From IMG/VR virus record IMGVR_UViG_3300044557_000566: a DNA stretch of 64,000 nucleotides; one strand, written 5' to 3'. Position 1 is the first letter of the stretch; each line of letters opens with the position of its first letter. Made by a program: the position numbers and the translations under genes. This DNA comes from an uncultured virus (IMG/VR IMGVR_UViG_3300044557_000566) (Duplodnaviria > Heunggongvirae > Uroviricota > Caudoviricetes). Positions 6,615 through 27,309 of the stretch are shown in pieces. The notes below the pieces were generated by a model. That model worked only from the letters and a program-made list of their open reading frames with translations. It was not told where the DNA came from and ran no database searches.

Positions 6615-6688
6615 GGTTGCCTGAGAAGGACTCGAACCTCCAGTATCCCCGTCCAGGGCGGGGCGCGTTGCCATTGCGCTATCAGGCA
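6615..6688 (-). tRNA. tRNA-Gln(CTG), C33
   Basis: Cloverleaf; AC arm CCCCG-CCCTGGA-CGGGG. Confidence 0.8.
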
Positions 6689-6866
6689 ATAAAATGGGCG
6701 GCTGGTTCCATGCAGCCGGCCTTACGCCGGCCCATGGGGGTACTCAATGGATATGATCCATTCGTTGACCACCAGCACCCCACGATCATGGTTATCTTCA
6801 ATCGCCATGATCGTGTTTCGCAGAATCCTGCATCATGTTGAAGACCACGATGCTATCAACTGTTAG

Positions 6867-6950
6867 CGGATGATGCGGGAGTCGAACCCGCCACGGTGTT
6901 ACCCGAACCTCATTAGCAGTGAGGCGCTTTAACCGCTCAGCCTACCATCC
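6867..6950 (-). tRNA. tRNA-Ser(GCT)
   Basis: CCTCA-CTGCTAA-TGAGG, long variable arm, G73. Confidence 0.9.
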
Positions 6951-7203
6951 ATACGCACTTCATATCAATTGCCGGAGTAAACCAGCAGTATCATTATAAC
7001 TCTTGCAGCCCGATCGTGTCAACCCCATCAGAATCATGCGAGAAACCTGCCATGACCTCAGCCTCATGAGCATCGGTCTTACCGGCAGACCCTCCCCTGC
7101 TGATGGTGAAGCAGATGGAATCATGGCGGTCGGAATTTCCTCACCAATTCCTCCTGAGTTTTATGATTACCCAACCCAGTGATGTGGACTCATCGTTACT
7201 CTC

Positions 7204-7374
7204 CTACTTCCTGCCGGGATGAATAGGATGATCAGTGCTCCCAATAATCGCCGTGAGACGTGGAGCAGGTGTGAAGCCATCCATGAACGCATTCAGGCGC
7301 ACCCTGGAGTCCTCAAGCTCTTTCCTCGTGAGGGGACCACGGTCAATCACGTAACTCTTGTCTATGCTACTCAT
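7204..7374 (-). CDS. Small hypothetical protein in the tRNA array
   Basis: GGAGG RBS before ATG 7374 (MSSIDKSY...). Confidence 0.4.
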   Translation of the reverse strand: MSSIDKSYVIDRGPLTRKELEDSRVRLNAFMDGFTPAPRLTAIIGSTDHPIHPGRK

Positions 7375-7414
7375 TTTCCCGTCCTCCATCGTTTCAATGA
7401 ATAATTGCATGGAG

Positions 7415-7487
7415 TGGAAGCGACGGGGATCGAACCCGCTTCCTCCTGCGTGCAAGGCAGGTGTCCTACCATTAGGACCTCGCCCCC
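7415..7487 (-). tRNA. tRNA-Ala(TGC)
   Basis: CCTGC-CTTGCAC-GCAGG, G3:U70. Confidence 0.9.
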
Positions 7488-7530
7488 ATTTGTGGAATAC
7501 ATGGACACAGTGCTATATCCATGCATCTAG

Positions 7531-7615
7531 CGGATGATGGGGGATTCGAACCCCCGGTGGTGTTACCCACTCCTGTTTTCTAGACAGGTGCACTAAACCG
7601 CTATGCGAATCATCC
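7531..7615 (-). tRNA. tRNA-Ser(AGA), A34
   Basis: CCTGT-CTAGAAA-ACAGG, long variable arm, G73. Confidence 0.9.
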
Positions 7616-7616
7616 G

Positions 7617-7689
7617 AGCCAGCAATCGGTTTCGAACCGATGACCTTCTCATTACAAGTGAGATGCTCTACCATCTGAGCTATGCTGGC
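7617..7689 (-). tRNA. tRNA-Thr(TGT)
   Basis: TCTCA-CTTGTAA-TGAGA. Confidence 0.9.
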
Positions 7690-7709
7690 AATTTTATGAA
7701 GTGATCCTT

Positions 7710-8067
7710 GAAGGCGGCCTGTAGCCACGGTTCTGTCCACATGATGACGAATAGGATCATCATGTTGTACCATCATCCATCTACTCCCGCTACCTGTCCT
7801 TATAACGATCGAATAAATCTAGACGTTCTGCGGTTTCACCGGGACTGGCTTGCCAAGGTTCCCCTCACGAGGATTAACCCACGATTTCTTACATCGTGCT
7901 TTTCACCCTTACCTGTGATTCCTTATGGAATCCATCGGCGGTATGGTCTCTGCGGCGCTATCACTACTCTCACGGGCGGTGGGATTACCCCACGTCCCTA
8001 TTCTATGGTGCCGTGAACTTCCTCTGAAAGAACGTCGTGTTCTACCAGCGATGATCCAGCTGCCTTC
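7710..8067 (-). ncRNA. rnpB: RNase P RNA
   Basis: P1 GAAGGCAGCTG/CAGGCCGCCTTC; 5' GAGGAAGTTCACGGC and 3' ACAGAACCGTGGCTAC form P4 with the bulged U; GGTAAGGGTGAAA present; ~358 nt. Confidence 0.9.
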
Positions 8068-8116
8068 AAAATGTTACGAGCTAACCCAATAAAAATTCGA
8101 GCAATCACGTATCATC

Positions 8117-8181
8117 GTGCTCATAATCGGAATCGAACCGATAACAATATACCCATATGGGAATAAAACCACCAGGTGAGC
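8117..8181 (-). pseudogene. Degenerate tRNA-like remnant
   Basis: Intact T arm ATCGG-TTCGATT-CCGAT and partial acceptor GCTCA/TGAGC; no D arm or normal anticodon arm. Confidence 0.45.
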
Positions 8182-8189
8182 TAATATTT

Positions 8190-8651
8190 TTAGACTAATA
8201 ATGATGACAATTCCGTTACCATTAACTCTAGTGTATGACGCCTTTCATTCATAAGAAACGAATTATTGACCTCATTACCATGATTATCAAATGATACCGA
8301 TTGGTCCCACATGACCCAATCATCCTTGTACTTGTTAATATCATTGATAAGTTCATTAGCAAGATATCTACAAGTTCTTAAACCCTCATAATCCATAAGA
8401 TCATGGGTCAACAGGCCATCATCAATGCTCGTTGATACGGAGTAAAGAATGCCATCAAAATCAAGGAATCCTACCGAATATCCCTCCGCGTCAAGACTTA
8501 CATTCAAATGAACGTCATCCTGATTAGCGGTAAGAACATCGATAAAATATTGAAGCAAGATTATAGGTACGTCATCAGTATAACTCACACTGCCTACACG
8601 CTTGTTATTAATAACAAGATCAGCGTACCCAGAACTTGGCTTTGATAACAA
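8190..8651 (-). CDS. Hypothetical protein (AT-rich insert)
   Basis: 153-aa ORF, AAGGAG RBS before TTG. Confidence 0.65.
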   Translation of the reverse strand: MLSKPSSGYADLVINNKRVGSVSYTDDVPIILLQYFIDVLTANQDDVHLNVSLDAEGYSVGFLDFDGILYSVSTSIDDGLLTHDLMDYEGLRTCRYLANELINDINKYKDDWVMWDQSVSFDNHGNEVNNSFLMNERRHTLELMVTELSSLLV

Positions 8652-8688
8652 AACGTTCTCCTTAACTATATCTCCCTATATCGTGAGG

Positions 8689-8759
8689 AGCGGTCGACGG
8701 GAATCGAACCCGCATCATCTCACAGGCAATGAGACGCCTTACCATTGGGCTACGACCGC
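8689..8759 (-). tRNA. tRNA-Gly(GCC)
   Basis: TCTCA-TTGCCTG-TGAGA, U73. Confidence 0.9.
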
Positions 8760-9015
8760 GTGAAAACCTAGCCAGTCCCCGGAGTGATCATGCATAATCA
8801 GACCAGGGGGACGGCTAGGAACTAAAATGTCGGCCATCATGGATGGGAAGATCCTCGCCTAATTGGAAATACCATAGCGATTGATGTCTTCATGACTGCT
8901 AACCGGGCGATCCCCATGACGCAACAGAATCCTCAGGGCTAGGCGCATCCACGCCTAGTCCTACTCCCCCATTCGGGAACTGCACGAGCATCACGCCTGC
9001 AAGAAGTGACCGACG

Positions 9016-9090
9016 TGCTTCCAACAGGATTCGAACCTGTGATCTCCTCCGTGTAAAGGAGGCGCCTTAGGCCAACTAGGCTACAGAAGC
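9016..9090 (-). tRNA. tRNA-Val(TAC)
   Basis: CCTCC-TTTACAC-GGAGG. Confidence 0.9.
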
Positions 9091-9164
9091 AAGATGTGTA
9101 CAAGCGTGTACAAATAAGATCGTGTACAAGCGTGCATAATCCTATCCGCGTACTGGACGCGTGA

Positions 9165-9329
9165 TCAATCAACCCTAGAATCTTTATCAGGGTCTTTATC
9201 CTTCAGGGTCTTCATGAAGGCGATAGAGGAGTCAACCAGTGAGTTCATCTTACGCTCAGTAGAATTCCTAGGGTGAGCGACCCTGGTATAACCGGGAATA
9301 AGCTTCCTATCCGTTGGGTTCTTACCCAT
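9165..9329 (-). CDS. Small hypothetical protein in the tRNA array
   Basis: GGAGG RBS before ATG 9329 (MGKNPTDRK...). Confidence 0.4.
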   Translation of the reverse strand: MGKNPTDRKLIPGYTRVAHPRNSTERKMNSLVDSSIAFMKTLKDKDPDKDSRVD

Positions 9330-9376
9330 ATCAGCCTCCAAATCCTGTGATTGTGATCCTATGTATGCTTGTTGCG

Positions 9377-9452
9377 TAGCGGGGGCGCGATTCGAACGCG
9401 CGATCTCTTGATTATGGGTCAAGCGAGGACAGCCGAGCTCCTCTACCCCGCA
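9377..9452 (-). tRNA. tRNA-Met(CAT), initiator-like, C33
   Basis: CTTGA-CCCATAA-TCAAG; 1:72 mismatch. Confidence 0.8.
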
Positions 9453-9454
9453 AG

Positions 9455-9527
9455 TGCTTTCAACAGGACTCGAACCTGTGACCTATTCCGTGTGATGGAA
9501 GCGCGCTGCCATCTGCGCCATGAAAGC
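9455..9527 (-). tRNA. tRNA-Val(CAC)
   Basis: Anticodon loop ATCACAC. Confidence 0.85.
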
Positions 9528-9739
9528 ATAAGTGGACGAGACTGCCTCTCCTTATGTCTTATCCATAATGCACCGTGCGTGATCATAAAACCCCCACGGG
9601 AGAGACGTGCTGACTGCTGTGGAGCATCAATGATCACAGCCTGTTATCACTGATCATCACCCCAATGGAGAACAACTCCCGTTATCTCAGGGACTGTTGC
9701 CCTCCACCAGTTACGACAATGATCAATGGATGCTCTGCG

Positions 9740-9810
9740 AGCGGATGACGGGAATCGAACCCGCGTATCTTCCATGGGAGGGAAGCGCCTTACCATTGGG
9801 CTACATCCGC
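9740..9810 (-). tRNA. tRNA-Gly(CCC)
   Basis: CTTCC-CTCCCAT-GGAAG. Confidence 0.9.
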
Positions 9811-10003
9811 AGCGCCAGGATCTTACGTGTCCTGGCAGGAACACTCCAGACTCCATACTCCACCTCGAGGTCAGTATTTCCACCAGCCCCTACAGGAGTG
9901 CTGTCACGACTGCCCTCACCGTCAACCACGTATCGGTTACAGGCTGGGGGGGGGAGTGCAGCTGCCCTAAACGTCTAGCTATAATAGAACAAACCAGACA
10001 TCG

Positions 10004-10074
10004 AGGGGATGACGGGAGCCGAACCCGCGTAACCTGCTTGGAGGGCAGGCGCACTACCGTTATGCTACATCCCC
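10004..10074 (-). tRNA. tRNA-Gly(TCC), C33
   Basis: CCTGC-CCTCCAA-GCAGG. Confidence 0.85.
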
Positions 10075-10202
10075 ATGTATCCTGAAACCATCACCGTGGC
10101 ATGCTCAAGATGGACGAAGGGTGTTCAGGACTGCACACCCTCTGTTTCCTTATCCCCCTATTGCGAGGTGAAATCACGATGATGACAAAAGATTTATGTC
10201 AA

Positions 10203-10780
10203 TTATCTGTGAGGGTTAGATCTTTCAGATTGTAATTTACGAAGGCATTCTTTGCTACAAGATTTTCTAACCTTCCTTGATGTATAAGAAAACTCACGCC
10301 CACACGCTTCACAAACGCTAACTCTACTACGTTTTTTGAGCGTATTCAATCTTCTGCATTCAAAGTAATTAACAGAAGTACGACTCACAAAACCAGTACC
10401 GTTCAATGGAACATTGCTGGATGAAGTTTACGCATCGATTCTGAAGTTTTCTGTCTAGTTTTACTACTTTGAGACCAAGTTCTCGTAAGACTATTAGGAA
10501 TTTGCCCGTAGAATAATGGCTTAAGAGTTACAAACCATTTCATCTCTAGAAAATCCTTAATCCTATTGGAATTCTCGCATTGTTCAAGAATTTGAAATCT
10601 AAGAGCGTGAGGATCTCCACCGTGTCTATTAAACCACTTTATAAATTCCTTACGATTATGATTACCAGACTTCAAACCCTTTAAGTGAGCTTTCCATCGT
10701 TCTTGAATATCCTTAGATTGACCAACGTAAAGACACGCTCCGTTGTAAGAATCAAAAATTGCGTAAATCCCACAAGCCAT
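10203..10780 (-). pseudogene. GIY-YIG homing endonuclease, apparently frameshifted (nuclease domain 10403-10780, Zn-ribbon part 10203-10406)
   Basis: GIYAI...LYVGQSKDIQERWKAH; second frame has CEACG...SCSKEC; AT-rich. Confidence 0.7.
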
Positions 10781-10863
10781 TGCTTATTACCACCTTAATG
10801 TTTTAAGAAACAAACGTTAAGATATCATTAGTAATGAAAATCAATCCTCTCAAGAGGATATCG

Positions 10864-10934
10864 TACCCCATGATTGAGTTGAACAATCTTAAGATGTTTA
10901 TAAGACATCCTTGCGCTACCGGCGACAATGGGGT
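10864..10934 (-). tRNA. tRNA-Ile(TAT), atypical D arm
   Basis: Acceptor ACCCCAT/ATGGGGT, GATGT-CTTATAA-ACATC, T arm GATTG-TTCAACT-CAATC. Confidence 0.75.
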
Positions 10935-10946
10935 GAATGTCCACAA

Positions 10947-11046
10947 TATGGGTTCACCGTGATTAATCACGCCGTGAGCATGAGGACTAGGGTAAGGATA
11001 ACCTAACCCTCACCTTGACGGCAATTGGAATCACGGTGAACCCATA
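10947..11046 (-). ncRNA. Candidate rod-shaped ncRNA
   Basis: 18-bp perfect terminal stem; inner TGAGGGTTAGG/CCTAGTCCTCA pairs fully only on the minus strand (two G-U pairs). Confidence 0.5.
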
Positions 11047-11175
11047 ATTAATAGATATAGGAGGTTTCTCATGACTGATCAGATTCAATGCTGCCACAAT
11101 GATTCCCATGCAATGGAATCATTCCACTGATCCATCATGACCGATCCGGGGAAATGATCAAAACCCGGATCAGCG

Positions 11176-11250
11176 TAGCCATATCGGGGCTCGAACCCGA
11201 ATTCTCTTCATTGAAGGTGAAGTGAGATAAACCAGTTACTCTATATGGCC
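11176..11250 (-). tRNA. tRNA-Glu(TTC), C33
   Basis: CTTCA-CCTTCAA-TGAAG. Confidence 0.85.
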
Positions 11251-12380
11251 CTTCTAGTTCTCCCTAGCTTCCTAATAGGAACACCAAGAAAATTTAATCT
11301 ATTCTCTACAGTAGTATGAGAAATTCCTAATTGTTCAGCAATTGCGTCCATACTCATTTCCTTTATAGAATAACATTTCTGAATTTCATCATCTAGGTTA
11401 TTTGCTATTCCATATCTACCAAGTTGAGCACAAATTCGTGAACAATATGTTTTATCTTTAACTTTTCTTCTAAAGATTGTAAAATGTTTTCCGCAATAAT
11501 CACAAACATAATGGTATCCATCTTTAGGCGTTTTGTGTATTTCTTGAAGAAGCAATCCGTGTTCTTTTAAACATCTTCTCACATGATTCCTACTGATGTG
11601 AAGTTTCTTGGCTGTGTCATATGTACTGATTCCAGATTTATAGGTATCAATGATAATATCCTCAATACTATCAACTTCTTCATGATAACATTCATCTGCC
11701 TTTCTTGTTTTTGGATTTATTCTATTGTCGCAAGAAACATTATTGCGTTTCAAGAATTTATCTAAAGATCCTCGACTGATATGAAGTTTTAATGATATAT
11801 CGCGTATGGCAAAACCAGACCGATAAAGTTCGTTAATAGTATTTTCAATACCATCAATTTCGTCATGATAATGCTTTTCAGCTCGTTTCTTAATTTCTTC
11901 AGCTCCAAGACTGATTTCGGGGTCCAATCTATTAGGCCAAGGAGCACAGATAGCATGATTCATAAGACATTCACCAATATTACGGCCATATTTTATCAGT
12001 AATGTTTCCATCACGTCAAGATCTGTTTTAAACCACGCATAAGCAATGAATGTTTTAATAACATCACCCTCACTATTGGAATTAATGTGCTCCTTAACAT
12101 CCCTACCACTACTCTTATAACGACGCCAACCAGGATTGCCGCTATTGTGCTTATCTTTACTATAATAATCACAAGCTAACTTGCGCTGACCTATGTATGT
12201 CTTGCCATCAGACTTGGTTGTTATCAGATAAATATAACCGTATGGAGTATCATGCGGATCATGCTCAGTCTTAATCTCGTCAGACTTCAACCTGAACATG
12301 GTTCGTAGTCGCTCTACGCGTTCATGCAATGGTAATGATTCCATACGATATATGGCACCAATTAGTATCAAGAATCGCAC
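11241..12380 (-). CDS. GIY-YIG homing endonuclease with HTH/Zn-finger repeats (start possibly ATG 12299)
   Basis: YGYIYLIT...KTYIGQRK, repeated HTH (ISLKLHISR, AKKLHISR, AEQLGISH), CDYCG...YCSRIC; stop codon lies inside tRNA-Glu. Confidence 0.8.
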   Translation of the reverse strand: MRFLILIGAIYRMESLPLHERVERLRTMFRLKSDEIKTEHDPHDTPYGYIYLITTKSDGKTYIGQRKLACDYYSKDKHNSGNPGWRRYKSSGRDVKEHINSNSEGDVIKTFIAYAWFKTDLDVMETLLIKYGRNIGECLMNHAICAPWPNRLDPEISLGAEEIKKRAEKHYHDEIDGIENTINELYRSGFAIRDISLKLHISRGSLDKFLKRNNVSCDNRINPKTRKADECYHEEVDSIEDIIIDTYKSGISTYDTAKKLHISRNHVRRCLKEHGLLLQEIHKTPKDGYHYVCDYCGKHFTIFRRKVKDKTYCSRICAQLGRYGIANNLDDEIQKCYSIKEMSMDAIAEQLGISHTTVENRLNFLGVPIRKLGRTRRAI

Positions 12381-12406
12381 AAATTATGACCCTTTAGGGT
12401 CATAAG

Positions 12407-12480
12407 CGCCCCGAACAGGATTCGAACCTGCAACCTACTGGGTAGAAACCAGCCGCTCTGATCCATTGGGCTACCGAGGC
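12407..12480 (-). tRNA. tRNA-Arg(TCT)
   Basis: GCTGG-TTTCTAC-CCAGT. Confidence 0.9.
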
Positions 12481-12577
12481 ATTAGGATTGGCGTGGTCGC
12501 GGATAAGACGATTATTCCACATTTTCATTTTTCAGATTCAGCCGATCCTCTATATAATCAACCGGCTACCAATCCAG

Positions 12578-12651
12578 TGCCCGCAGTCGGATTCGAACCG
12601 GCAACCTTCTCCTTAGGGGGGAGACGCTCTATCCAGTTGGGCTATGCGGGC
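12578..12651 (-). tRNA. tRNA-Arg(CCT), C33
   Basis: TCTCC-CCCCTAA-GGAGA. Confidence 0.9.
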
Positions 12652-12656
12652 ATGAT

Positions 12657-12770
12657 GCAGACGTGATGAACGCGATCAGGAAGAATCTTTTCCATCAGAC
12701 CACCGACATGCATAAGAGTCGGGCGGGATTCGAACCCGCATCTCTTCCATTACGCGCTCACCGCGTCTGT
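12657..12770 (-). ncRNA. Circularly permuted tRNA-like RNA (Y RNA/YrlA-type architecture)
   Basis: Long terminal stem, then T arm GCGGG-TTCGAAT-CCCGC, loop-closed acceptor CCGAC/GTCGG, then D arm GTCT-GATGGAAA-AGAT. Confidence 0.7.
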
Positions 12771-12828
12771 GCTCGGGGATTCCGGAATCCCCGCTTGAAA
12801 CCGCACGGTTGCAATCCATGCGGCCAAG

Positions 12829-12911
12829 TGCCCCGAGCGGGAGTCGAACCCGCACTTCCGAGGAAAGTTCTTTTTAAGAGAACCGCGTATACCAATTCCA
12901 GCCATCGGGGC
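12829..12911 (-). tRNA. tRNA-Leu(TAA)
   Basis: GTTCT-CTTAAAA-AGAAC, long variable arm. Confidence 0.9.
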
Positions 12912-13011
12912 GTTGGATGAGTTTACCGACATCATTAGGTCTAAGTATAAACGCTATTCCATTATCAAGCATTTGTTCACATTCACACGGTCAACGTGGC
13001 GAACAGTATTC

Positions 13012-13050
13012 ATTATATCACGGTGCTGCGTGCTTGACAACGGCGTGTCG
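13012..13050 (-). promoter_or_regulatory. Internal sigma-A promoter of the tRNA array
   Basis: CGACACGCCG-TTGTCA-17 nt-TATAAT with extended -10 TG. Confidence 0.7.
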
Positions 13051-13084
13051 CAATCCCCCGCTATAAGTTTTGAATAATGGTCAG

Positions 13085-13156
13085 ACGTGGAGACGGGATT
13101 CGAACCCGCGTATAATTGAATTGCGGTCAATTGCCTAACCATTTGGCTACTCCACG
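13085..13156 (-). tRNA. tRNA-Cys(GCA), C33
   Basis: ATTGA-CCGCAAT-TCAAT, U73. Confidence 0.85.
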
Positions 13157-13157
13157 G

Positions 13158-13229
13158 TACGGGCAGATCGAGTTGAACGATCCTTGCTTCTGTATCAGAG
13201 AAGTGTACTCACCGATGTACGATGCCCGC
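13158..13229 (-). tRNA. tRNA-Ile(GAT), divergent
   Basis: CTTCT-CTGATAC-AGAAG. Confidence 0.75.
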
Positions 13230-13281
13230 GTATTCTACTCATTCTGCTGTTCGCGTGTGAGCACGAGGAGCGTGCTCATCG

Positions 13282-13355
13282 TCACAACGGGAGGACTCGA
13301 ACCTCCGACATCCTGATTATGATTCAGGCGCTCTCACCAGCTGAGCTACGTTGCG
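13282..13355 (-). tRNA. tRNA-Met(CAT), elongator
   Basis: CCTGA-ATCATAA-TCAGG. Confidence 0.85.
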
Positions 13356-13466
13356 TTACGAGATATAGACGGTCACGGCTGAGTCTACGATCAGTAAACA
13401 TCCCCGCGGGCTGTGCGGCCACATGCCAGCGCTTCCTCCTATTGAAAGTCGCGCAAGCACCCACCG

Positions 13467-13538
13467 TGGATCCAACGAGAGTCGAACTCGCCACATCCTC
13501 CGTGCGGGGGAGGATCGCCACCATCGGCATTTGGACCC
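13467..13538 (-). tRNA. tRNA-Ala(CGC), C33
   Basis: CCTCC-CCCGCAC-GGAGG, G3:U70. Confidence 0.8.
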
Positions 13539-13633
13539 ATAATAATGAATGTTATAATTGTGCTCGATTCGACATGCTGGTACGATGTACTAGAACCTCG
13601 ATAGGGACCATAATGCTTCCATCATGATCCTCG

Positions 13634-13707
13634 TGCGAATGGATCGGCTTGAACGATTGACATCATCCTTATCAGGAATGCGCTCTAACCATCTGAGCTA
13701 CATCCGC
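13634..13707 (-). tRNA. tRNA-Ile(GAT)
   Basis: CATTC-CTGATAA-GGATG. Confidence 0.85.
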
Positions 13708-13738
13708 GAGCCTTATAAATAGTTGAATAAGGAGTCAA

Positions 13739-14155
13739 TCAATTTGACAAACTTTTAATCGCGTTAATCACTTCTGTGCACTCCTTAACTTGTAATGATT
13801 CCACGCCATAACGATCAGCCACATTTTCAAGACGTGCTTCAAAGCTTACAAGATCCCCGCGTGAATCAACAGACATATCAGCCTTATTAAGGAGTATTCC
13901 TAACGTAGTATTCAGACCTTCCATCGTACCATGCGCTGCTACTTCTTTCCAGTGAACATAACCTTGGGATCTTAGCAAATCACCACCAATCTTAGCGTGA
14001 GTACGATTGTCCCCAATCATGTACCCAAGATCATGCACCCATCCTAATAATGCTGCTTCTTGAGGATCAAGCCCATATTCTGATGCATGATTAAACATGT
14101 ATTCTGCTACTCCTCGTGAGTGTGAAGCCCTAGTAGAATCAATAAAACTAATCAA
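13739..14155 (-). CDS. HD-domain phosphohydrolase
   Basis: HSRGVA...GWVHDLGY...H...AH...LNKAD. Confidence 0.85.
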   Translation of the reverse strand: MISFIDSTRASHSRGVAEYMFNHASEYGLDPQEAALLGWVHDLGYMIGDNRTHAKIGGDLLRSQGYVHWKEVAAHGTMEGLNTTLGILLNKADMSVDSRGDLVSFEARLENVADRYGVESLQVKECTEVINAIKSLSN

Positions 14156-14210
14156 TAATTCTCCTTATTAATAAATTGACACTCGAACGTACAAACCCAT
14201 AACTAGGGTA

Positions 14211-14248
14211 CGTGCGGGGGAGGATCGCCACCAGCGGCATTTGGACCC
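14211..14248 (-). pseudogene. 5' half of tRNA-Ala(CGC), truncated just after the anticodon loop
   Basis: 37/38 identity to 13501-13538. Confidence 0.75.
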
Positions 14249-14279
14249 AGGTAATGCTAACCGTATGGCTAGCATATCG

Positions 14280-14354
14280 TGCGGATGATGTGACTTGAAC
14301 ACATGACCTCATTCTTATCAGGAATGCGCTGCTAACCATCTGAGCTACATCCGC
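14280..14354 (-). tRNA. tRNA-Ile(GAT)
   Basis: CATTC-CTGATAA-GAATG. Confidence 0.9.
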
Positions 14355-14403
14355 ATGTCTCATATAATGAATGACGGGCAGCAAGCCACGCCGATGATGG
14401 TCA

Positions 14404-14493
14404 GGTTCAACCCCTCTACGCTGGGAATACCCGCGTTGTCAGACGCTTGCCCACTGAGCGCGGAGAGGTTCAACCCCTCTACGCTGGGAATAC
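14404..14493 (-). CRISPR. Mini-array: two identical variant repeats and one spacer
   Basis: GGTTCAACCCCTCTACGCTGGGAATAC at 14404 and 14467; three differences from the main-array repeat. Confidence 0.8.
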
Positions 14494-14536
14494 CTCCTAG
14501 GTCATCCGGGTACAATCATCTACTCCCCTCACCACG

Positions 14537-14609
14537 AGCCAGCACCCGGAATCGGACCGGGGACCTTCTCATTACGAGTGAGACGCTCTACCATCTGAGC
14601 TATGCGGGC
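14537..14609 (-). tRNA. tRNA-Thr(CGT)
   Basis: TCTCA-CTCGTAA-TGAGA. Confidence 0.85.
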
Positions 14610-14786
14610 ATACACGATTTTATCCAGATCGTGAACTGGTTGGCGCGCCCTTAGTTAGATGCCGGTCAATCACTTCCACCAATTGTTAGCATCGTTCCCG
14701 CGAACAGCACGCGGACGCCATCCCGCGTGACACTCACCCGAGTACGGTTCGGAGGTTGGGGCTGTGGACACTCCGATGGAGAGACG

Positions 14787-14860
14787 TGTTCGCAGCTGGA
14801 TTTGGACCAGCGACCGCCTCCGTGTCAGGGAGGAACGCTACCGGACTGCGCCATGCGAAC
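14787..14860 (-). tRNA. tRNA-Val(GAC)
   Basis: CCTCC-CTGACAC-GGAGG. Confidence 0.85.
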
Positions 14861-14922
14861 ATATGAGACCAAGACGCCTGATCCACAGGCAATCAACGAT
14901 TGCCATGGACGTGGACGCGGAG

Positions 14923-14995
14923 AGCCAACAGATGGAATCGAACCATCGACCTTCTCATTACTGGTGAGACGCTCTACCAACTGAGCTATGCAGGC
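14923..14995 (-). tRNA. tRNA-Thr(AGT), A34 and C33
   Basis: TCTCA-CCAGTAA-TGAGA. Confidence 0.85.
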
Positions 14996-15102
14996 AAGAT
15001 GGACGGCTTGGGTGATCCCATTTGCCGTCACGACTCGAAGCATGAACCCGCCAGTTCATGTTTCTCATCGTGACGGCCGCACTACTAGGAATACCGTCAA
15101 TG

Positions 15103-15176
15103 TGCCTCCAGCCGGGTTCGAACCGGCGGCATCTTGTTTCGAAGACAAGCGCTCTGATCCGCTGAGCTATGGAGGC
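15103..15176 (-). tRNA. tRNA-Arg(TCG)
   Basis: CTTGT-CTTCGAA-ACAAG. Confidence 0.9.
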
Positions 15177-15186
15177 AAGTAGTGAT

Positions 15187-15265
15187 TGGCGAGGCGTGCA
15201 ACCATGCTGCATCTGCGGAATCGGACCGGTGCAGGAATACGGACTCGAGCCGTTACCCTTCGCCA
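15187..15265 (-). ncRNA. Second candidate permuted tRNA-like (Y-like) RNA
   Basis: TGGCGAAGG/CCTCGCCA closing stem; ACGG-CTCGAGT-CCGT, CTGC/GCAG and TGCAGC-ATG-GTTGCA in T-acceptor-D order. Confidence 0.4.
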
Positions 15266-15308
15266 CGGGGCAACCAGCCCCAATCCTACCACACCGGGTA
15301 GGACGCAG

Positions 15309-15381
15309 TTCTCCCAATCGGTCTCGAACCGATGACACCCTGCTTAAGAGGCAGGTGCTCTACCATCTGAGCTATAGGAGC
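15309..15381 (-). tRNA. tRNA-Lys(CTT)
   Basis: CCTGC-CTCTTAA-GCAGG; 1:72 mismatch. Confidence 0.85.
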
Positions 15382-15419
15382 ATTATCTCCCAAATCATCA
15401 ATCACAATGACTGGAATTG

Positions 15420-15493
15420 GGTGACTGGAGGAACTCGAATCCTCGACCTGCTGAACCACAATCAGCCGCTCTAACCATCTGAGCTACAGCCAC
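15420..15493 (-). tRNA. tRNA-His(GTG)
   Basis: GCTGA-TTGTGGT-TCAGC, C73. Confidence 0.9.
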
Positions 15494-15495
15494 AG

Positions 15496-15568
15496 CTCCC
15501 CGTGAAGGATTCGAACCTCCAACCTCTGCATTCAGAGTGCAGCGCACGGCCAAACATGCTGACGGGGA
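15496..15568 (-). tRNA. tRNA-Gln(CTG)
   Basis: CTGCA-CTCTGAA-TGCAG. Confidence 0.85.
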
Positions 15569-15609
15569 ATATTAGGACTCATTGAGATTACTATTCTCAA
15601 TGCTTCCAG

Positions 15610-15680
15610 CTGCCCACCATGGATTCGAACCATGCTTGGAGGTACCAAAAGCCTCAGTCCTGCCAATAGACGAGTGGGCA
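15610..15680 (-). tRNA. tRNA-Gln(TTG)
   Basis: Anticodon loop TTTTGGT, U1:A72. Confidence 0.85.
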
Positions 15681-16014: not shown

Positions 16015-16047
16015 AAAATAACAAAAACGACTCTAAAAGCCATTTCG

Positions 16048-18028: not shown

Positions 18029-18064
18029 ATATGCTGATCATGTGGCCATTGGCAGCAAGATCCG

Positions 18065-18138: not shown

Positions 18139-18139
18139 G

Positions 18140-18213: not shown

Positions 18214-18287
18214 TGTCCCCTATGGGATTCGAACCCATACTAGACGGCTCCTTAGGCCGACGCCTCTACCAATTGGGCTAAAGGGAC
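18214..18287 (-). tRNA. tRNA-Leu(AAG), A34, short variable arm
   Basis: CGGC-CTAAGGA-GCCG. Confidence 0.85.
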
Positions 18288-18374
18288 ATGATACGTGGAT
18301 GCGATCATGATCGTCACCAGTCACGCATCCACGATAGGGCCAACTGGTGACAACCGTCGCTGTCATCGTGTGCC

Positions 18375-18465
18375 CGGTTCTCAGGGGGATTCGAACCCAC
18401 GCTCGCTGGGAATGACCCCTCGCACCACTTTATCGGCGGCTGCTACCATTGCATCATTGAGAACC
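18375..18465 (-). tRNA. Atypical tRNA-like gene: 8-bp acceptor, long extra arm, loop CGATAAA
   Basis: GGTTCTCA/TGAGAACC, G73, canonical TTCGAAT T loop. Confidence 0.55.
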
Positions 18466-18468
18466 ACG

Positions 18469-18554
18469 TGCCCTCACCCGGATTCGAACCGAGAGCCCCA
18501 TCACGGGAAGACGGGTTTGAGCCGTCCGCGTCTACCAATTCCAGCCATGAGGGC
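18469..18554 (-). tRNA. tRNA-Leu(CAA)
   Basis: GACGG-CTCAAAC-CCGTC, long variable arm. Confidence 0.9.
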
Positions 18555-18710
18555 AATTTGCTTAATGCTCTGTAAGGAGAATCACTTATGATCATCAGGA
18601 CTGCAAGCGCAAGCCGTATGCGCTCACCGGGTGACTATCCCCCGCCAAGGGAAGAATTGCCGCCAACAATTCTTGTCATCATCCCCACGGTTGTCCATTC
18701 CCGTGGTAAG

Positions 18711-18784
18711 TACTCTCCATGGGATTCGAACCCATGCTAGACGGTCCCTGAAACCGCCTCCTCTGCCAATCGGGCTAGGAGAGC
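18711..18784 (-). tRNA. tRNA-Leu(CAG), short variable arm
   Basis: GCGGT-TTCAGGG-ACCGT. Confidence 0.85.
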
Positions 18785-18841
18785 ATAACGTGCCGTCAAT
18801 CCCACCGTGGTTTGGGGAGTTGAACCATTGACGGCACATAG

Positions 18842-18915
18842 TAGCCTCATCGGGACTCGAACCCGAAGTCTCATCCTTGAGAGGGATGCGAGGTGACCAG
18901 TTACTCTATGAGGCC
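18842..18915 (-). tRNA. tRNA-Glu(CTC)
   Basis: CATCC-CTCTCAA-GGATG. Confidence 0.9.
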
Positions 18916-18916
18916 G

Positions 18917-19001
18917 CGGATGATGAGGGATTCGAACCCCCGGTGGTGTTACCCACTCTTGTTTTCAAGACAAGTGCACTCGACCGCTATGCGAATCATC
19001 C
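18917..19001 (-). tRNA. tRNA-Ser(TGA)
   Basis: CTTGT-CTTGAAA-ACAAG. Confidence 0.9.
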
Positions 19002-19100
19002 AAATATTGTATGCAGTAAGAGCTAGGAGCCCCCGCCGCGCCGGGCCACAGCCTTACCGGCTTGTCCAGCCCTCGAGTAAGCATCCTTATCGAGCCCGCG

Positions 19101-19172
19101 CGACCACGACGGGAATCGGACCCGCTCTAGCTTGCTCGACAGGCAAGTGTCCAACCGGAGGACCTCGTGGCC
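19101..19172 (-). tRNA. tRNA-Asp(GTC)
   Basis: CTTGC-CTGTCGA-GCAAG, G73. Confidence 0.8.
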
Positions 19173-19247
19173 ATAATGATGCAGACAGCATTACGTGATG
19201 AAAACAATGTCAGAACTTTCATCGGAATCTGTCCACATTCACCTACG

Positions 19248-19322
19248 CTCCCTGTACTAGAGTCGAACTAGTTGCCTCTCGATTAACAGTCGAGCGCAGC
19301 CGCCGAAGGCTGCTCACAGGGA
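19248..19322 (-). tRNA. tRNA-Asn(GTT)
   Basis: CTCGA-CTGTTAA-TCGAG. Confidence 0.85.
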
Positions 19323-19355
19323 ATAATAGATGGGCGTTTAACGTGCGCCCATCAT

Positions 19356-19752
19356 GCACGGCATGTTTTTCTATCCGACTGCTCGGACTGCTTAGACCAG
19401 CTCACCACTTGGACATGACTGACAGCATGCGCTGTCAACCGTCACCGCGGATTGCCTATAGGGAACATCTGAAGAAGTATGTTTATTGTCTACCGGCGCT
19501 CGACCTTCACAACGAGCTTGGTACCCGGCTCACGGATTATACGTACTGGGACACAATGTGACCCCGGGTAGCATCTTGAGGACAAGACGCGACCACACCT
19601 CGCTTTCTCCGTGCGAGATCCAGAATACTGGCGCTCCATCATGCAGACGAGTTGACTAGACCCGTATGGTCTCCTGACCAAGCGCGATAATTCTTTAACA
19701 TTCCGGTACCGTGGCCGTCGCATTGCTTCCTCATCTGGAGTTGCACCAGACC
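19356..19752 (-). ncRNA. Candidate large structured ncRNA (unidentified)
   Basis: Nested long-range stems (ACGGC/GCCGT, TACCGG/CCGGTA, TACCCGG/CCGGGTA, GCGCT/AGCGC) plus many local hairpins. Confidence 0.5.
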
Positions 19753-19834
19753 TCATTATTAGATTATCAGACCATCCTCACCATGATTCCATGCGGTCAA
19801 GCATGTCCACAGGGTGACCAGATGACGGTCATCG

Positions 19835-19908
19835 TCGGGATGACAGGATTTGAACCTGCGGCATCTTGCTCCCAAAGCAAGCGCGCTACCAAGCTGCGCT
19901 ACATCCCG
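19835..19908 (-). tRNA. tRNA-Pro(TGG)
   Basis: CTTGC-TTTGGGA-GCAAG. Confidence 0.95.
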
Positions 19909-20003
19909 AAATATTAAGTTATGTCACTACGCTGGACGGTTTCCCGTTGAGCGCGGCACATCCAATGATAACACACCCGTTAGGGTACGCGGTCAGCGGC
20001 GTG

Positions 20004-20076
20004 TCGGGATGGCGGGGATCGAACCCGCTGTCTCCTGCTCCCGAAGCAGGCGGATTACCTTTCCTCCCTCATCCCG
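20004..20076 (-). tRNA. tRNA-Pro(CGG)
   Basis: CCTGC-TTCGGGA-GCAGG. Confidence 0.85.
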
Positions 20077-23769: not shown

Positions 23770-24107
23770 TCCAGATCACCAACCCGAATCTAATATCATT
23801 GCAAGATCTCTTATCAAGACTTTGTTAATCTATCGTCGAACGGAAGATAGGAGAACAAAGAACATCGCAATAAGAATCGTATTGTGATTAAAGACTTGTC
23901 TATTCCATGGGGAAGATGATCCTAATCATGTGGTCTCATATGGCTGAGATTCAACTATCATCAGAACGCAACAGTCTACTATGCTTCTGGTGATAGTCTG
24001 AACGGACATGTGCAGAAAGGCTTCCTTGTGTATAACGTAACTTCCCGAGGGCTAAACCACTGTAGAATCGCGAGATCTCAATGCTTGCAATGCATCAATA
24101 ATAAGAC

Positions 24108-24965
24108 TCAGAACGTGATCACGATCTTCATCCTGCAGGCCTCATTGAGACGAAGATTGCTTGACAGCCTCTCAACATCTGACAAGACGCCATCAAGACT
24201 CCTACTACTACGTCCACCCGATGCTACGCTATCACGATCTGTCGCCACCACCCATTCTGGATGCTTAGCGTCAGTCTTATCGTGAATCCTAGGCTTGATG
24301 CCCACCCATGCAAGACTGGCCTTGCTCTCGCCAGTAATTTCGTGATTACCGTTCGTTATGATCTTGGTAGTCCACGCGCTAGCATAGAATCCCCTAACAC
24401 CGTCCCTACGAAGTCCCCTCCACGACAATGAACCATCACGGATAACCTGGTACAGACCAACACAGACCGCTCTCTGAATGAGCTTACCGTTCTCGTCTGT
24501 TCCCTCTGACCATTCAGTAGTGGCATTGATCCCGCCTGAGTAAAGACCCATTCCGTCAAGTTCCTTCCTATTGGAAGCAATACCCCTCGTATCAGACCAC
24601 CATTCCGGCTTATGGATGATTGATTGTTCTGATGGAGCCCAGATGGGCTCGAAGATGATCGGCTGCTTCGTCTTATCATGCTCTCTCAGCAATTGCTGCA
24701 ACTTGGATGCGATTCTTGCATATGAGGACTTGATCTCACTCCTACCGGGACCAACCCTACGCATGACCTCGTCAAGAGTGGGATTCCTCTGGCTCCCCTC
24801 ACGGAGGCTCTCCTGGAACTCAAGCCATTCCACAGCGGAATCCCTATCAGTCCAATGGTACAGGGGGTGACCATTGCCGTCATGATGATAACGACACGTC
24901 TTTGGGTCACGGGCCCGGCAGGCCTCCAGCCCGCCGTCCCTTATCACCCACGCTACATTCCTCAT
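24108..24965 (-). CDS. Hypothetical protein with N-terminal CxAxDPxxCRYH motif
   Basis: 285-aa ORF, leaderless-type start. Confidence 0.65.
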   Translation of the reverse strand: MRNVAWVIRDGGLEACRARDPKTCRYHHDGNGHPLYHWTDRDSAVEWLEFQESLREGSQRNPTLDEVMRRVGPGRSEIKSSYARIASKLQQLLREHDKTKQPIIFEPIWAPSEQSIIHKPEWWSDTRGIASNRKELDGMGLYSGGINATTEWSEGTDENGKLIQRAVCVGLYQVIRDGSLSWRGLRRDGVRGFYASAWTTKIITNGNHEITGESKASLAWVGIKPRIHDKTDAKHPEWVVATDRDSVASGGRSSRSLDGVLSDVERLSSNLRLNEACRMKIVITF

Positions 24966-25158
24966 GCGATGAGGATATCAGATCTAATATCGCGGGATGG
25001 TGGCGTCGCGTGAATGGTTTTACTTATCTTACCATAGTTTCGATCAACGGGGGGGGGTAGATCATGAACATGCTACGAAGTGAGGGGGAGCTGAGATGGT
25101 AGAGACTATCGTCGGTATCGTGGTGCTCGTGATCTTTGGACTCACCCTTAGCCACAGA

Positions 25159-26634
25159 TCATTGAGCCGACTTGTACTCATTGTAGAATCTTACCAGTTC
25201 TACCCTCGCCCTGTCCTCTCCAACCTGACCATTGCTCATCCTGTACTCTAGCATGTGATCATAGAGGACACCCAGGACTGGACCAGGCTTGATCCCAAGG
25301 ATGCTCATCATCTGGTTACCGTTCAACTCGGGGCGGATCTTGTCAAGATCCTCCTTGGCCTTGAGCCTGGAGACGTGATCCTCCAGTTGGTCCATGTATC
25401 CAATGATGCGGGCCTCACGATTCTTATGGAAGGTGGTCACGTCCGCCCTGGTAAGCACCATGAGACGATCATACAGCGGACCCACCTCCTGGAGGAATCT
25501 TCGCACACCAGAATCAGACCATAAGACCCCGTTGGGATCAGCGTACCCATGTGCCCTCATGTGAAGGGCTACCAGGTCGCTCACATCCCTAATCACGTCA
25601 TGAGGATACTTCAACGAGGATAGCCTCTTCTTCACCATCCCGGCACCAGCAGCCTCGTGGCCATCAAAGGTCACCTTCTTCCTGCCGTTGAACCTCCTGG
25701 TGGTAGTCTTGCCCACGTCATGGAGCACTGCGGCCAGTCTGAGGACAAGATCGGGGCCTCCATCAGGGAGTCTGTCCTCCATACTGATAGCCCTGTCAAG
25801 AACGGTGAGGGAATGCTCGAAGTTAGCCTTGTGGAGTCCACGGCTACTTCTATCAGCCCTCCTCAATTCTGACAACTCGGGGAGAACGTGATCCATGAGA
25901 CCCGAATCAGACATCTCCCGTAGAGCGTTAGATGGGTTGGCTGACAGCATGATCTTGTTCAACTCGTCAGCAACCCTCTCCCTACTGATCTCATCAAGAC
26001 GTGGGGTCATACTCCTTATAGCGTTCATGGTCTCATCTTCAATCTTGAACCCATACTTGCCAACGAATCTGATCGCCCTGAGCATACGGAGTGGATCTTC
26101 ACCGAAGGAGATCTTTGGGTCAAGCGGGGTGCGAATGACCCCACGCCTGAGATCTTCACGGCCTCCGTAGGGGTCAACCAGCACAAGATCAGGAAGTCTG
26201 ATGGCCATCGCGTTGATGGTCATGTCACGACGCTTGAGATCATCTTCGAGGCTTGAACCCCATTCCACTCGAGGCTTCCTAGATCCACGATTATAGGAAT
26301 CGGAACGGTAGGTGGTGACCTCAACGTCAGCGTCAATATTCCCGGGGAGATGCCTGCGAGCACCAATGGTCCCATACTTACGGCCAACCTCCCAGTAGCC
26401 ATCTCCCCACGGCATCAGTATGCGGGAAGACTCATCTGGTCTAGCATTAGAGGTCATGTCAAGATCTTTTGGAACACGACCAAGAAGAAGATCGCGAACC
26501 GGTCCTCCAACAAGAGCCAGTTCATACCCCCTTGACTGGTATTCCCTTCCAAGACTGATGGATGCGTTGATGAGGGGGATGGCTGCATCTGGAATCATGA
26601 TGCCACCCAGACCCTTGACTGACAGGTTCTTCAT
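25159..26634 (-). CDS. cca: CCA-adding tRNA nucleotidyltransferase with HD domain
   Basis: VGGPVRDLLLG, DLD, EDDLKRRDMTINAMA, EDPLRMLRA, LHDVGK; start chosen at ATG 26634. Confidence 0.9.
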   Translation of the reverse strand: MKNLSVKGLGGIMIPDAAIPLINASISLGREYQSRGYELALVGGPVRDLLLGRVPKDLDMTSNARPDESSRILMPWGDGYWEVGRKYGTIGARRHLPGNIDADVEVTTYRSDSYNRGSRKPRVEWGSSLEDDLKRRDMTINAMAIRLPDLVLVDPYGGREDLRRGVIRTPLDPKISFGEDPLRMLRAIRFVGKYGFKIEDETMNAIRSMTPRLDEISRERVADELNKIMLSANPSNALREMSDSGLMDHVLPELSELRRADRSSRGLHKANFEHSLTVLDRAISMEDRLPDGGPDLVLRLAAVLHDVGKTTTRRFNGRKKVTFDGHEAAGAGMVKKRLSSLKYPHDVIRDVSDLVALHMRAHGYADPNGVLWSDSGVRRFLQEVGPLYDRLMVLTRADVTTFHKNREARIIGYMDQLEDHVSRLKAKEDLDKIRPELNGNQMMSILGIKPGPVLGVLYDHMLEYRMSNGQVGEDRARVELVRFYNEYKSAQ

Positions 26635-26784
26635 AATCAGCCTTCCTTCCATTACTGTAGAAGCATTAACGTTAAAATGACAAATGACAATTGAATCATA
26701 ATATGAAGACCCATAGGAAACGCCGCGAGCCATGATGAGAATGGCCCGCGGCGTAGCAATACTCTCCACCAGCTGGATGAGATC

Positions 26785-27309
26785 CTATCGAGCTGACGGT
26801 GAGAGTATCAGCGTGACCGCAGACCCATTATACGTGGGCGGCGTCGAGATTACAAACACGTCTTCAAGCGAAGACACCATGGTCTTCATGCAGTCATACG
26901 CGACCTGCTTGTGATCACGCTCACGTCCACGAAGCTGCACGGTGAGGCGGACTTTATCACCCCTTGATAGGAATCGTACAGCCTGGTTCTTCTTGACCTC
27001 AAGATCATGTGATTCTATATTCGGGCGGAGACGGATCTCCTTCAACTGCTGTACGCGAGCACTATGCCGCTGACGCTTGGCCTTCTGCTGCTCTTTAAAT
27101 CTTTCCTCGGACGCATCACCCATCTTCACGATGGGAGGATCATGACGAGCATCCATCTCAATGAGGTCAAATCCCGCATCATCGGCCAATCGAAGCGCGA
27201 CGTCAGTATCAATCACCCCAGCGCTCTTACCGTTATCGCCTATGAGCATAACCCTGCTCGCGGTGATGTCCCCATTGATCTTCCTACGATTATCAGCGTT
27301 CTTACCCAA
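26785..27309 (-). CDS. infC: Translation initiation factor IF-3
   Basis: INGDI...DPPIVK...KEIRLRPNIESHDL...FLSRGDKV...RGRE. Confidence 0.95.
   Translation of the reverse strand: MGKNADNRRKINGDITASRVMLIGDNGKSAGVIDTDVALRLADDAGFDLIEMDARHDPPIVKMGDASEERFKEQQKAKRQRHSARVQQLKEIRLRPNIESHDLEVKKNQAVRFLSRGDKVRLTVQLRGRERDHKQVAYDCMKTMVSSLEDVFVISTPPTYNGSAVTLILSPSAR

Follow-up and report, generated by a model that had tools for sequence, protein, structure and literature searches.

We analysed a window of 64,000 nucleotides, bases 299,869-363,868 of the 419,707-bp IMG/VR virus record IMGVR_UViG_3300044557_000566. This window contains a dense array of 51 tRNA genes and, within the array, a gene for a type-A RNase P RNA (rnpB) which looks intact and apparently functional, with genes for a CCA-adding enzyme and the translation initiation factor IF3 further upstream. 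Together with a transfer-messenger RNA (tmRNA), a Pth2-like hydrolase domain and an RNA ligase/kinase also carried by the element, these probably constitute a translation-support module operating as proposed below. The translation suite of giant mobile elements is already known; what appears from the sequence to be new is the addition of a full-size, apparently functional RNase P RNA. The principal features, in window positions (used throughout unless genome positions are indicated), are:

6615-20076, minus strand: array of 51 tRNA genes (union of ARAGORN and Rfam)
7706-8067, minus strand: type-A RNase P RNA (rnpB), 362 nt, without P18 (RF00010)
25159-26769, minus strand: CCA-adding tRNA nucleotidyltransferase of actinobacterial type (PolyA_pol, PolyA_pol_RNAbd and HD domains; TIGR02692)
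26785-27309, minus strand: IF3 with both domains (IF3_N and IF3_C; TIGR00168)

The tRNA array

ARAGORN identified 50 tRNA genes at 6615-20076, every one on the minus strand. The Rfam tRNA model gave 48 matches above its cut-off, including one missed by ARAGORN (16048-16119), while three genes (15609-15680, 18375-18465 and 19247-19322) were found by ARAGORN only. The union of 51 is one fewer than the 52 of the original prediction, which had rightly described the genes as co-oriented, as representing all 20 amino acids, as abutting in several cases at 0-3 nt and as nearly all devoid of an encoded CCA. Indeed, none of the 51 genes carries CCA after the discriminator, and at 11 of the 50 junctions the distance between the discriminator and position +1 of the next tRNA is at most 3 nt. 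Ser(AGA)-Thr(UGU) and Ser(UGA)-Glu(CUC) are examples of abutting pairs. The 50 typed tRNAs represent 42 different anticodons and, with ordinary wobble, the array could read every sense codon. The array spans 13,462 bp and, with 3.8 tRNA genes per kb, comes under the published definition of a tRNA array unit (20 or more tRNA genes, 2 or more per kb; PMC4758250). No tRNA gene was found outside the array in the whole 419,707-bp record.

The tRNA gene copy number follows the codon use of the element itself. AAG represents 84% of lysine codons and CAG 73% of glutamine codons, and in both cases the cognate tRNA gene is present twice (tRNA-Lys(CUU) and tRNA-Gln(CUG)) against a single copy of tRNA-Lys(UUU) and tRNA-Gln(UUG). 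AGG makes up 40% of arginine codons and a CCU tRNA is present, as are three copies of tRNA-Ile(GAU).

The nucleotide preceding the mature 5′ end (position -1) is T in 35 of the 51 genes; the proportion is 70/166 for tRNA genes of unrelated loci (Fisher p 0.0012). A similar excess (34/48, p 0.0005 against the same loci) was observed in G014, a related IMG/VR record described below. U at -1 has been reported as enriched in transferred tRNA genes and is said to be the -1 base preferred by type-A RNase P RNA (PMC6582537). C74, present in 49/51 genes here and in 48/48 in G014, was considered as a second hallmark and discarded: it occurs in 86 of 92 CCA-less control tRNA genes drawn from 176 unrelated loci and is therefore not a feature of the element.

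An RNase P RNA gene within the array

The location of rnpB inside the array, claimed in the original prediction, was confirmed by an RF00010 match at 7706-8067 (148.4 bits for a gathering score of 100, E 9e-46, model positions 1-367). The gene lies between tRNA-Gly (8687-8759) and tRNA-Thr(UGU) (7616-7689), and its 3′ end is 16 nt ahead of the latter. The covariance-model alignment spans P1-P17. Since the covariance model does not score the pseudoknot, P4 provides an independent test of the structure. In the consensus registers P4 is complete, with 8/8 pairs and its bulged U. At four of the pairs both nucleotides differ from the consensus (A:U to G:C, G:C to U:G, C:G to A:U and G:C to C:G), as would be predicted from selection for the fold and not from decay. 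The RNA also keeps the conserved J3/4-P4 strand and J12/13 GGGUGAAA. When the alignment was read by eye, the P15/16 loop was seen to contain AGGUA on its 3′ side, with the GGU motif of L15, and a GAA between P5 and P15 could be assigned to the J5/15 adenosines. The GGU of L15 binds the 3′ end of the tRNA, and roles have also been described for the J5/15 adenosines (in part from PMC6582537). On this sequence evidence the ribozyme looks intact and is apparently functional.

CCA-adding enzyme, IF3 and other translation-related genes

Genes cca and infC had been placed 5-7 kb upstream of the array and both assignments hold, the genes lying 5.1-7.2 kb from its first tRNA (20076). The CCA enzyme scores 527.3 bits against the TIGR02692 equivalog model (cut-off 438.8); its nearest named relatives, at 50-54%, are from Bifidobacteriaceae, Cellulomonas, Isoptericola and Streptomyces. 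IF3 scores 149 bits against TIGR00168 (cut-off 60) and includes practically complete IF3_N (1-69 of 70) and IF3_C (2-85 of 86) domains. The tmRNA gene is located at genome positions 267,185-267,540; no gene for its partner SmpB was found on the record. The Pth2-like hydrolase domain is encoded elsewhere on the element. Possible RNA-repair functions are represented by an Rnl1-like RNA ligase with a fused kinase domain and by a second candidate listed here with the gene next to infC:

27420-28610, minus strand: DnaX-like clamp-loader subunit (Pfam), marking a gene order common with G014 (46% identical stretch at G014 182405-183010)
42009-43268, minus strand: polynucleotide kinase-phosphatase (Pnkp)-like protein, RNA-repair candidate (AAA_33)

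The match of the latter to bacterial Pnkp is weak (E 1e-11, far under the cut-off). An MBL-fold protein was rejected as RNase Z (47 bits for a cut-off of 252), and no convincing 3′ endonuclease was found on the element.

Relatives of the element and rnpB genes in other tRNA arrays

G014 (437,576 bp) is the only relative whose DNA was read. About 50 proteins are common to G014 and the element (25-59% identity, with half of the query or more aligned). The tRNA genes of G014 number 47, and the tag encoded by its tmRNA ends in a similar way. Its RNase P RNA, located between tRNA-Val and tRNA-Thr, is only 258 nt long and scores 49.5 bits, under the Rfam cut-off. It has lost most of the specificity domain and P18 and keeps P1-P5, P15-P17 and L15. 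Its P4 also forms 8/8 pairs, with a compensation of its own. As in the element, a CCA-type enzyme is encoded between the array and DnaX, and the array, the slim RNase P RNA, the CCA enzyme and the tmRNA follow each other in a similar order. A common descent of the two RNase P RNAs is suggested by the U:G third P4 pair, the missing P18 and the identical P15 3′ strand found in both.

G014 shows several other particularities. A small signal recognition particle (SRP) RNA (166297-166383 in G014; 40.4 bits for a cut-off of 40) directly follows a tRNA-Val, and no SRP54 M domain was found on that record. A tRNA with a CUA anticodon, of the amber-suppressor type, is present at 137837-137909. The ends of the record form a perfect inverted repeat of 110,183 bp; this may be a genuine terminal inverted repeat of great length or may have arisen by fold-back during assembly.

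Other contigs of comparable size also include relatives of individual proteins. The CpaF-like ATPase encoded 5 kb from rnpB has homologues at 75% on a 349,703-bp contig, at 71% on a 491,046-bp contig and at 59% on contigs of 489,114 and 397,575 bp. RecA homologues are found at 79% and 67% on the first two of these, and homologues of the CCA enzyme accompany those of CpaF on the 349,703-bp (61%) and 489,114-bp (52%) contigs. These observations indicate that a family of similar size exists and that it keeps the CCA enzyme. Other searches were less productive. The CCA enzyme, used as a single-protein query, retrieved no relative from IMG/VR, a metagenome scan gave only generic CpaF genes at 30-40% identity, and no close relative was found in a scan of genome contigs. 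Comparison of rnpB with phage and plasmid collections by blastn gave no match. Of two lineage-specific rnpB patterns, one had no match and the other detected only G014 and four chance matches without tRNAs or RF00010.

A motif scan of IMG/VR for rnpB identified 65 loci, of which the 12 largest contigs were followed up. All 12 carry an rnpB with a canonical score (261-288 bits). In six of them (L069, L073, L074, L075, L076 and L078; 77-279 kb, rnpB 261-280 bits) there are 10-22 tRNA genes within the 3.3-kb locus around rnpB; three have a G+C content of about 48% and three of 65-69%. A CCA-type enzyme is present on two of five rnpB-bearing contigs tested, and RnpA, the protein partner of the ribozyme, is not encoded in any of six rnpB-bearing records tested, this element included.

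Other features of the array

Several additional genes and sequences are located within the array:

8190-8651, minus strand: acidic 153-aa ORF (pI 4.2), immediately upstream of rnpB and preceded by a good ribosome-binding site (no Pfam or NCBIfam match)
10403-10780, minus strand: GIY-YIG endonuclease (PF01541, E 6.3e-10)
11241-12380, minus strand: SegE-like GIY-YIG homing endonuclease with HTH/NUMOD domains (PF19835, E 7.3e-9, plus HTH families)
13739-14155, minus strand: small HD-domain protein (PF01966, E 6.9e-7; no NCBIfam match)
14405-14493, plus strand: CRISPR mini-array of two degenerate repeat copies about 37 nt apart
18138-18213, minus strand: tRNA-Met(CAU) with a C1:A72 mismatch, initiator-like (sequence, fold and end analysis)

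The ORF upstream of rnpB was considered as a novel RnpA and rejected in view of its acidity and lack of family. The two copies of the mini-array, which lies between tRNA-Ile and tRNA-Thr on the strand opposite to the tRNAs, are identical to each other and each differ at three positions from the CRISPR repeat of the element. We take the C1:A72 mismatch of tRNA-Met(CAU) to be an initiator hallmark, and this tRNA is a possible client of the element IF3.

Six tRNAs have A at the wobble position, namely Ser(ACU) (17654-17743), Ser(AGA) (7530-7615), Thr(AGU) (14922-14995), Ala(AGC) (16693-16766), Leu(AAG) (18213-18287) and Arg(ACG) (15941-16014), and there is no G34 partner in those boxes. To our knowledge, bacteria normally have only Arg(ACG) among such A34 tRNAs. 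No TadA-like deaminase was found on the element with NCBIfam; a 153-aa deaminase was rejected for this role as NCBIfam points to relatives of dCMP/dCTP deaminases. The tRNA at 18375-18465, left untyped by ARAGORN, has a long arm and a 6-nt anticodon loop. That missed by ARAGORN (16048-16119) can be typed as tRNA-Lys(UUU) from its anticodon loop and has a non-standard T-loop.

A promoter/terminator scan was barely above background (33 against 21.8 in shuffled sequences, sd 5.0) and was not retained. Metatranscriptome contigs match spacers of the array with 0-1 mismatches (9569-9769 and 14218-14451 in run X18; 13636-13863 and 13240-13468 in run X20). They were not taken as evidence either way: DNA carry-over is possible, foreign tRNAs inflate depth and the rnpB bin is almost uncovered.

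The carrier element

The 419,707-bp record is classed in IMG/VR as complete with direct terminal repeats, and 89 identical bases are common to its two ends. ORFs cover 89% of it in the bacterial code and, besides the RNA arrays, the whole record includes no long ORF-poor block in which recoded genes could be hidden; an alternative genetic code is not indicated. We consider it to be a complete and probably circular giant mobile element of about 420 kb from activated sludge. A 9.9-kb stretch is present at 0.76-0.99 of sampled words in ten bioreactor-sludge runs from ten studies, the highest share (0.99) being that of run X1, from which this DNA may have come. It is also present, in smaller shares, in dust, wastewater, one lake-water RNA run and two coded organisms.

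Protein families were assigned with Pfam for the 367 proteins of at least 90 aa in the record and with PHROGs for 114 unassigned proteins of at least 230 aa; two ORFs crossing the window ends were scanned in part only. By these methods, which rely on sequence only, neither set includes capsid, portal, terminase, sheath or tube families. The record encodes a ParB-like protein (PHROGs), a plasmid Replicase family protein (PF03090, Pfam) and an AAA_10/VirB4-like ATPase which adjoins TcpE and T2SSF. There are also weak matches to TcpC, TrbL/VirB6 and RcpC, a second T2SSF, three CpaF/T2SSE ATPases, three FtsK-like proteins, a lysozyme+CHAP protein and, within the window, a prepilin-like protein (Pfam). 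No relaxase family turned up in any scan of the record proteins. ESM Atlas look-ups for two large unassigned proteins gave nothing usable.

The element has a near-complete replisome and repair set (Pol III alpha, DnaG, DnaB, SSB, beta clamp, DnaX, gyrase A/B, LigA, RecA, RecG and a topoisomerase I). The last is encoded by two genes at 43380-45908 on the minus strand, the first ending with TAA and being followed by a ribosome-binding site and an in-frame ATG 18 nt further on. Central-metabolism genes are also present (TIM, class II aldolase, fumarase and DHODH), together with two ClpP genes. Among T4-like functions are an rIIA-like protein and an alpha-glucosyltransferase-like protein (both PHROGs), a TET-associated glycosyltransferase, dNMP kinase, dCMP deaminase, PhoH2, ThyX, NrdD and dUTPase. 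The alpha-glucosyltransferase-like gene (37813-39075, minus strand) and that of the TET-associated glycosyltransferase (genome 270,952-272,178, outside the window) together suggest that the element may hypermodify its own DNA.

A complete type I-E cas operon is located at about 244.5-253.5 kb of the genome. The matching CRISPR array, about 50 kb away, is at 32295-33624 on the plus strand and includes 22 perfect 26-nt repeat cores with a 62-nt period. A second repeat pair (31269-31356) is found 1 kb upstream of it and a solitary degenerate repeat at 43290-43315.

The G+C content is 49% and the genes make frequent use of AGG and AAG codons. RecA shows about 50% identity to proteins from many phyla, the aldolase is Firmicutes-like and a PASTA-bearing penicillin-binding protein (PBP) is Micrococcaceae-like. 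The Actinomycetota signal is limited to the CCA enzyme, CrgA, NucS and the PASTA-PBP. A host in this phylum is our best guess only.

Database comparisons gave no useful reference. The best plasmid match in PLSDB, a 415-kb Actinomyces oris sequence (NZ_CP116225.1), looks chromosomal (murJ, trxB, thrC, serC). The best phage matches, MT835611.1 and MT836608.1 (both "Bacteriophage sp."), are unannotated, have a G+C content of 72-73% and no tRNAs, and may be bacterial. Terminase_6N was tried as a phage/plasmid marker and was absent from 8/8 records tested, thus providing no discrimination.

A proposed translation-support module and its possible roles

We propose that the module would function as follows. 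The co-oriented genes and short spacers point to multi-tRNA transcripts, and the array would be transcribed into such precursors. RNase P assembled from the RNA of the element and the RnpA of the host would cut the 5′ end of each tRNA. At the 11 junctions of at most 3 nt, the same cut would leave the upstream tRNA with a near-mature 3′ end, 0-3 nt past the discriminator, and the cut at tRNA-Thr would trim the transcript of the ribozyme itself to within 16 nt of its 3′ end. Host exonucleases would trim the remaining trailers, the CCA enzyme of the element would add CCA to each of the 51 tRNAs, and charging would be carried out by host synthetases. IF3, the initiator-like tRNA-Met, tmRNA, the Pth2-like domain, the RNA ligase/kinase and the Pnkp-like protein would complete a set for translation support and tRNA repair. 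The payoff would be translation of the AGG/AAG-rich, 49% G+C gene set with less reliance on the host tRNA pool and processing, as well as greater robustness to tRNA damage.

The view that the element encodes both 5′ maturation and CCA addition for its own tRNAs thus stands in part. It is consistent with the intact-looking ribozyme, with the need of every tRNA for CCA and with the presence of a CCA enzyme, and it falls short in that RnpA is missing. The supply is not "self-contained", as the original prediction had it: no RnpA, SmpB or aminoacyl-tRNA synthetase was found on the element, and host proteins are therefore needed at several steps. The kit consists of RNA subunits and a few enzymes plugging into host proteins and is not autonomous.

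Several observations weigh against the proposed function of the ribozyme and the unity of the module. Even with E values of up to 1 allowed, the 419.7-kb record gave no match to RnpA (PF00825), so that ribozyme activity hinges on acceptance of a diverged RNA by host RnpA. The RNA has indeed diverged a long way, as judged by its score of 148 bits against 261-288 for the 12 cellular-type copies on other IMG/VR contigs. In place of the 25 model positions of P18 there is a single nucleotide, and about 10 pairs are non-standard (20 "v" marks in the alignment, counted by hand), mostly in P15-P17; these two features could reflect relaxed constraint. Loss of P18 is known in some bacterial lineages and is no bar to membership of type A. 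Finally, IF3 was not found in G014 and hence is not a conserved part of the module.

The low score, the missing P18 and the lack of a partner protein are what would be expected of a passenger rnpB, acquired along with the tRNA genes of an earlier host and by now idle or in decay. We regard this as improbable. The RNA is full length with an intact catalytic core, and its P4 has been kept through four double changes. In G014 a differently compensated P4 and the rest of the core have been kept in a reduced RNA which has shed most of its specificity domain, and the same architecture recurs in six of the 12 other large IMG/VR contigs. A different question is what the array is for. It might serve mainly in counter-defence, replacing host tRNAs cleaved by anticodon nucleases or depleted by stress, with the RNase P RNA and CCA enzyme keeping the pool flowing and codon supply being secondary. 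The Rnl1-like ligase/kinase, the Pnkp-like protein and the Pth2-like domain would fit such a role, as would the type I-E CRISPR-Cas system with its arrays, and tRNA array units have been presented as putative anti-defence systems (PMC12803027). However, the agreement between tRNA copy number and codon use fits supply as well and no host anticodon nuclease is known here, and we think it unlikely that counter-defence is the principal role. The two roles are not exclusive.

As to the carrier, we lean towards a plasmid-like or unclassified element; though filed as a virus, it may not be a virus at all. It could instead be a huge tailed phage whose capsid, portal and terminase are too diverged to be detected and whose kit serves a lytic takeover, a role already suggested for other huge phages. 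This is the less likely case, and one to be taken seriously given the classification as a virus with direct terminal repeats, the 89-bp identical ends, the 114 proteins of at least 230 aa without assigned function and the many T4-like accessory genes, among which can be counted the Rnl1-like ligase and the SegE-like endonuclease. Against it are the absence of virion families from both the Pfam and PHROGs scans, the set of plasmid-like genes (from ParB-like and Replicase to the VirB4-, Tcp- and CpaF-related proteins) and the lack of any ORF-poor block which might hide recoded genes. It is very improbable that the contig results from mis-assembly or comes from a small cellular chromosome, its tRNAs and rnpB then being cellular. 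Such a chromosomal origin, which the original prediction had itself put forward as one outcome that would overturn it, could explain the housekeeping-like genes (TIM, class II aldolase, fumarase, RecA, gyrase, Pol III alpha and two ClpP). It is contradicted by the concentration of all tRNAs in one array, by the identical ends and by the finding of the same 9.9 kb, at 0.76-0.92 of sampled words, in nine further sludge runs (X2-X10) of other studies. Moreover, no 16S rRNA or SRP RNA gene was found on the record, nor any ribosomal protein or aminoacyl-tRNA synthetase among the 367 proteins scanned with Pfam, and the element is therefore not a chromosome.

Comparison with known systems

The array has a parallel in phage T4, in which tRNA genes are clustered, some of them abutting and without CCA, and dimeric precursors are matured by RNase P and the CCA-adding enzyme. 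The T4 cluster also includes a GIY-YIG homing endonuclease gene, and Rnl1 and Pnkp repair cleaved tRNA. T4 relies on the RNase P RNA and the CCA enzyme of its host, whereas the element brings its own. Up to 67 tRNAs are said to occur in huge phages.

Huge phages and large plasmid-like sequences have been described with many tRNAs, CCA enzyme, IF3, tmRNA and CRISPR-Cas (Al-Shayeb et al. 2020, PMC7162821), and the element shares with them all of these features, a size above 200 kb and an origin in environmental metagenomes. The term "RNase P" does not occur in the main text of that report, supplementary tables aside, while the element has a ribozyme gene inside its array; in contrast to the huge phages described there, no phage structural gene was detected in the element.

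Dense tRNA arrays on mobile DNA of Actinomycetota are also known as tRNA array units of Mycobacterium plasmids, phages and chromosomes (PMC5966550, PMC4758250, PMC12803027). In addition, two extra RNase P RNA homologues with an altered specificity domain, flanking an endonuclease gene, have been described in M. austroafricanum and M. sp. YC-RL4, and horizontal transfer was suspected (PMC9569102). As described in the available text of these mycobacterial papers, the extra RNase P RNA does not belong to an array accompanied by a CCA enzyme and IF3 in a giant element. At 49% G+C the element is not mycobacterial, and no GOLLD RNA was found in the window with Rfam.

Apart from these mycobacterial copies (PMC9569102), we found nothing in print on an RNase P RNA encoded by a phage, virus or plasmid; two papers on rnpB finders mention neither plasmids nor phages. 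The original prediction that an array of this size with a mobile rnpB is uncommon has therefore to be qualified: large tRNA suites are in print (PMC7162821), and a mobile rnpB, unusual as it is in the literature, recurs in tRNA arrays in IMG/VR (6/12).

Significance

RNase P RNA is regarded as a strictly cellular (and organellar) gene. An intact mobile rnpB located among its presumed substrates and travelling with a CCA enzyme suggests that 5′ processing of tRNA can limit the expression of giant elements, or be a point at which they are attacked. A naturally diverged type-A ribozyme without P18, and a still slimmer relative, provide material for determining which regions of the RNA are indispensable when the RnpA is foreign, and bear on the way in which abutting CCA-less precursors are handled. 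A 420-kb "virus" record without detectable virion genes also matters for the classification of such records.

The presence of RNA subunits whose partner proteins are missing (RNase P RNA and tmRNA in the element, SRP RNA in G014) is a pattern testable across huge elements. We tentatively suggest, as a broader idea which is rather unlikely to hold, that the element belongs to an undescribed family of 0.33-0.49-Mb elements lacking capsid genes and filed as viruses, which would probably reside in sludge Actinomycetota and, encoding neither RnpA nor SmpB nor Ffh themselves, re-arm these host proteins with RNAs of their own, the ribozyme being adapted to abutting CCA-less precursors. If true, this family would take over the RNA side of host translation support: tRNAs, RNase P RNA, tmRNA and, in the relative, SRP RNA.

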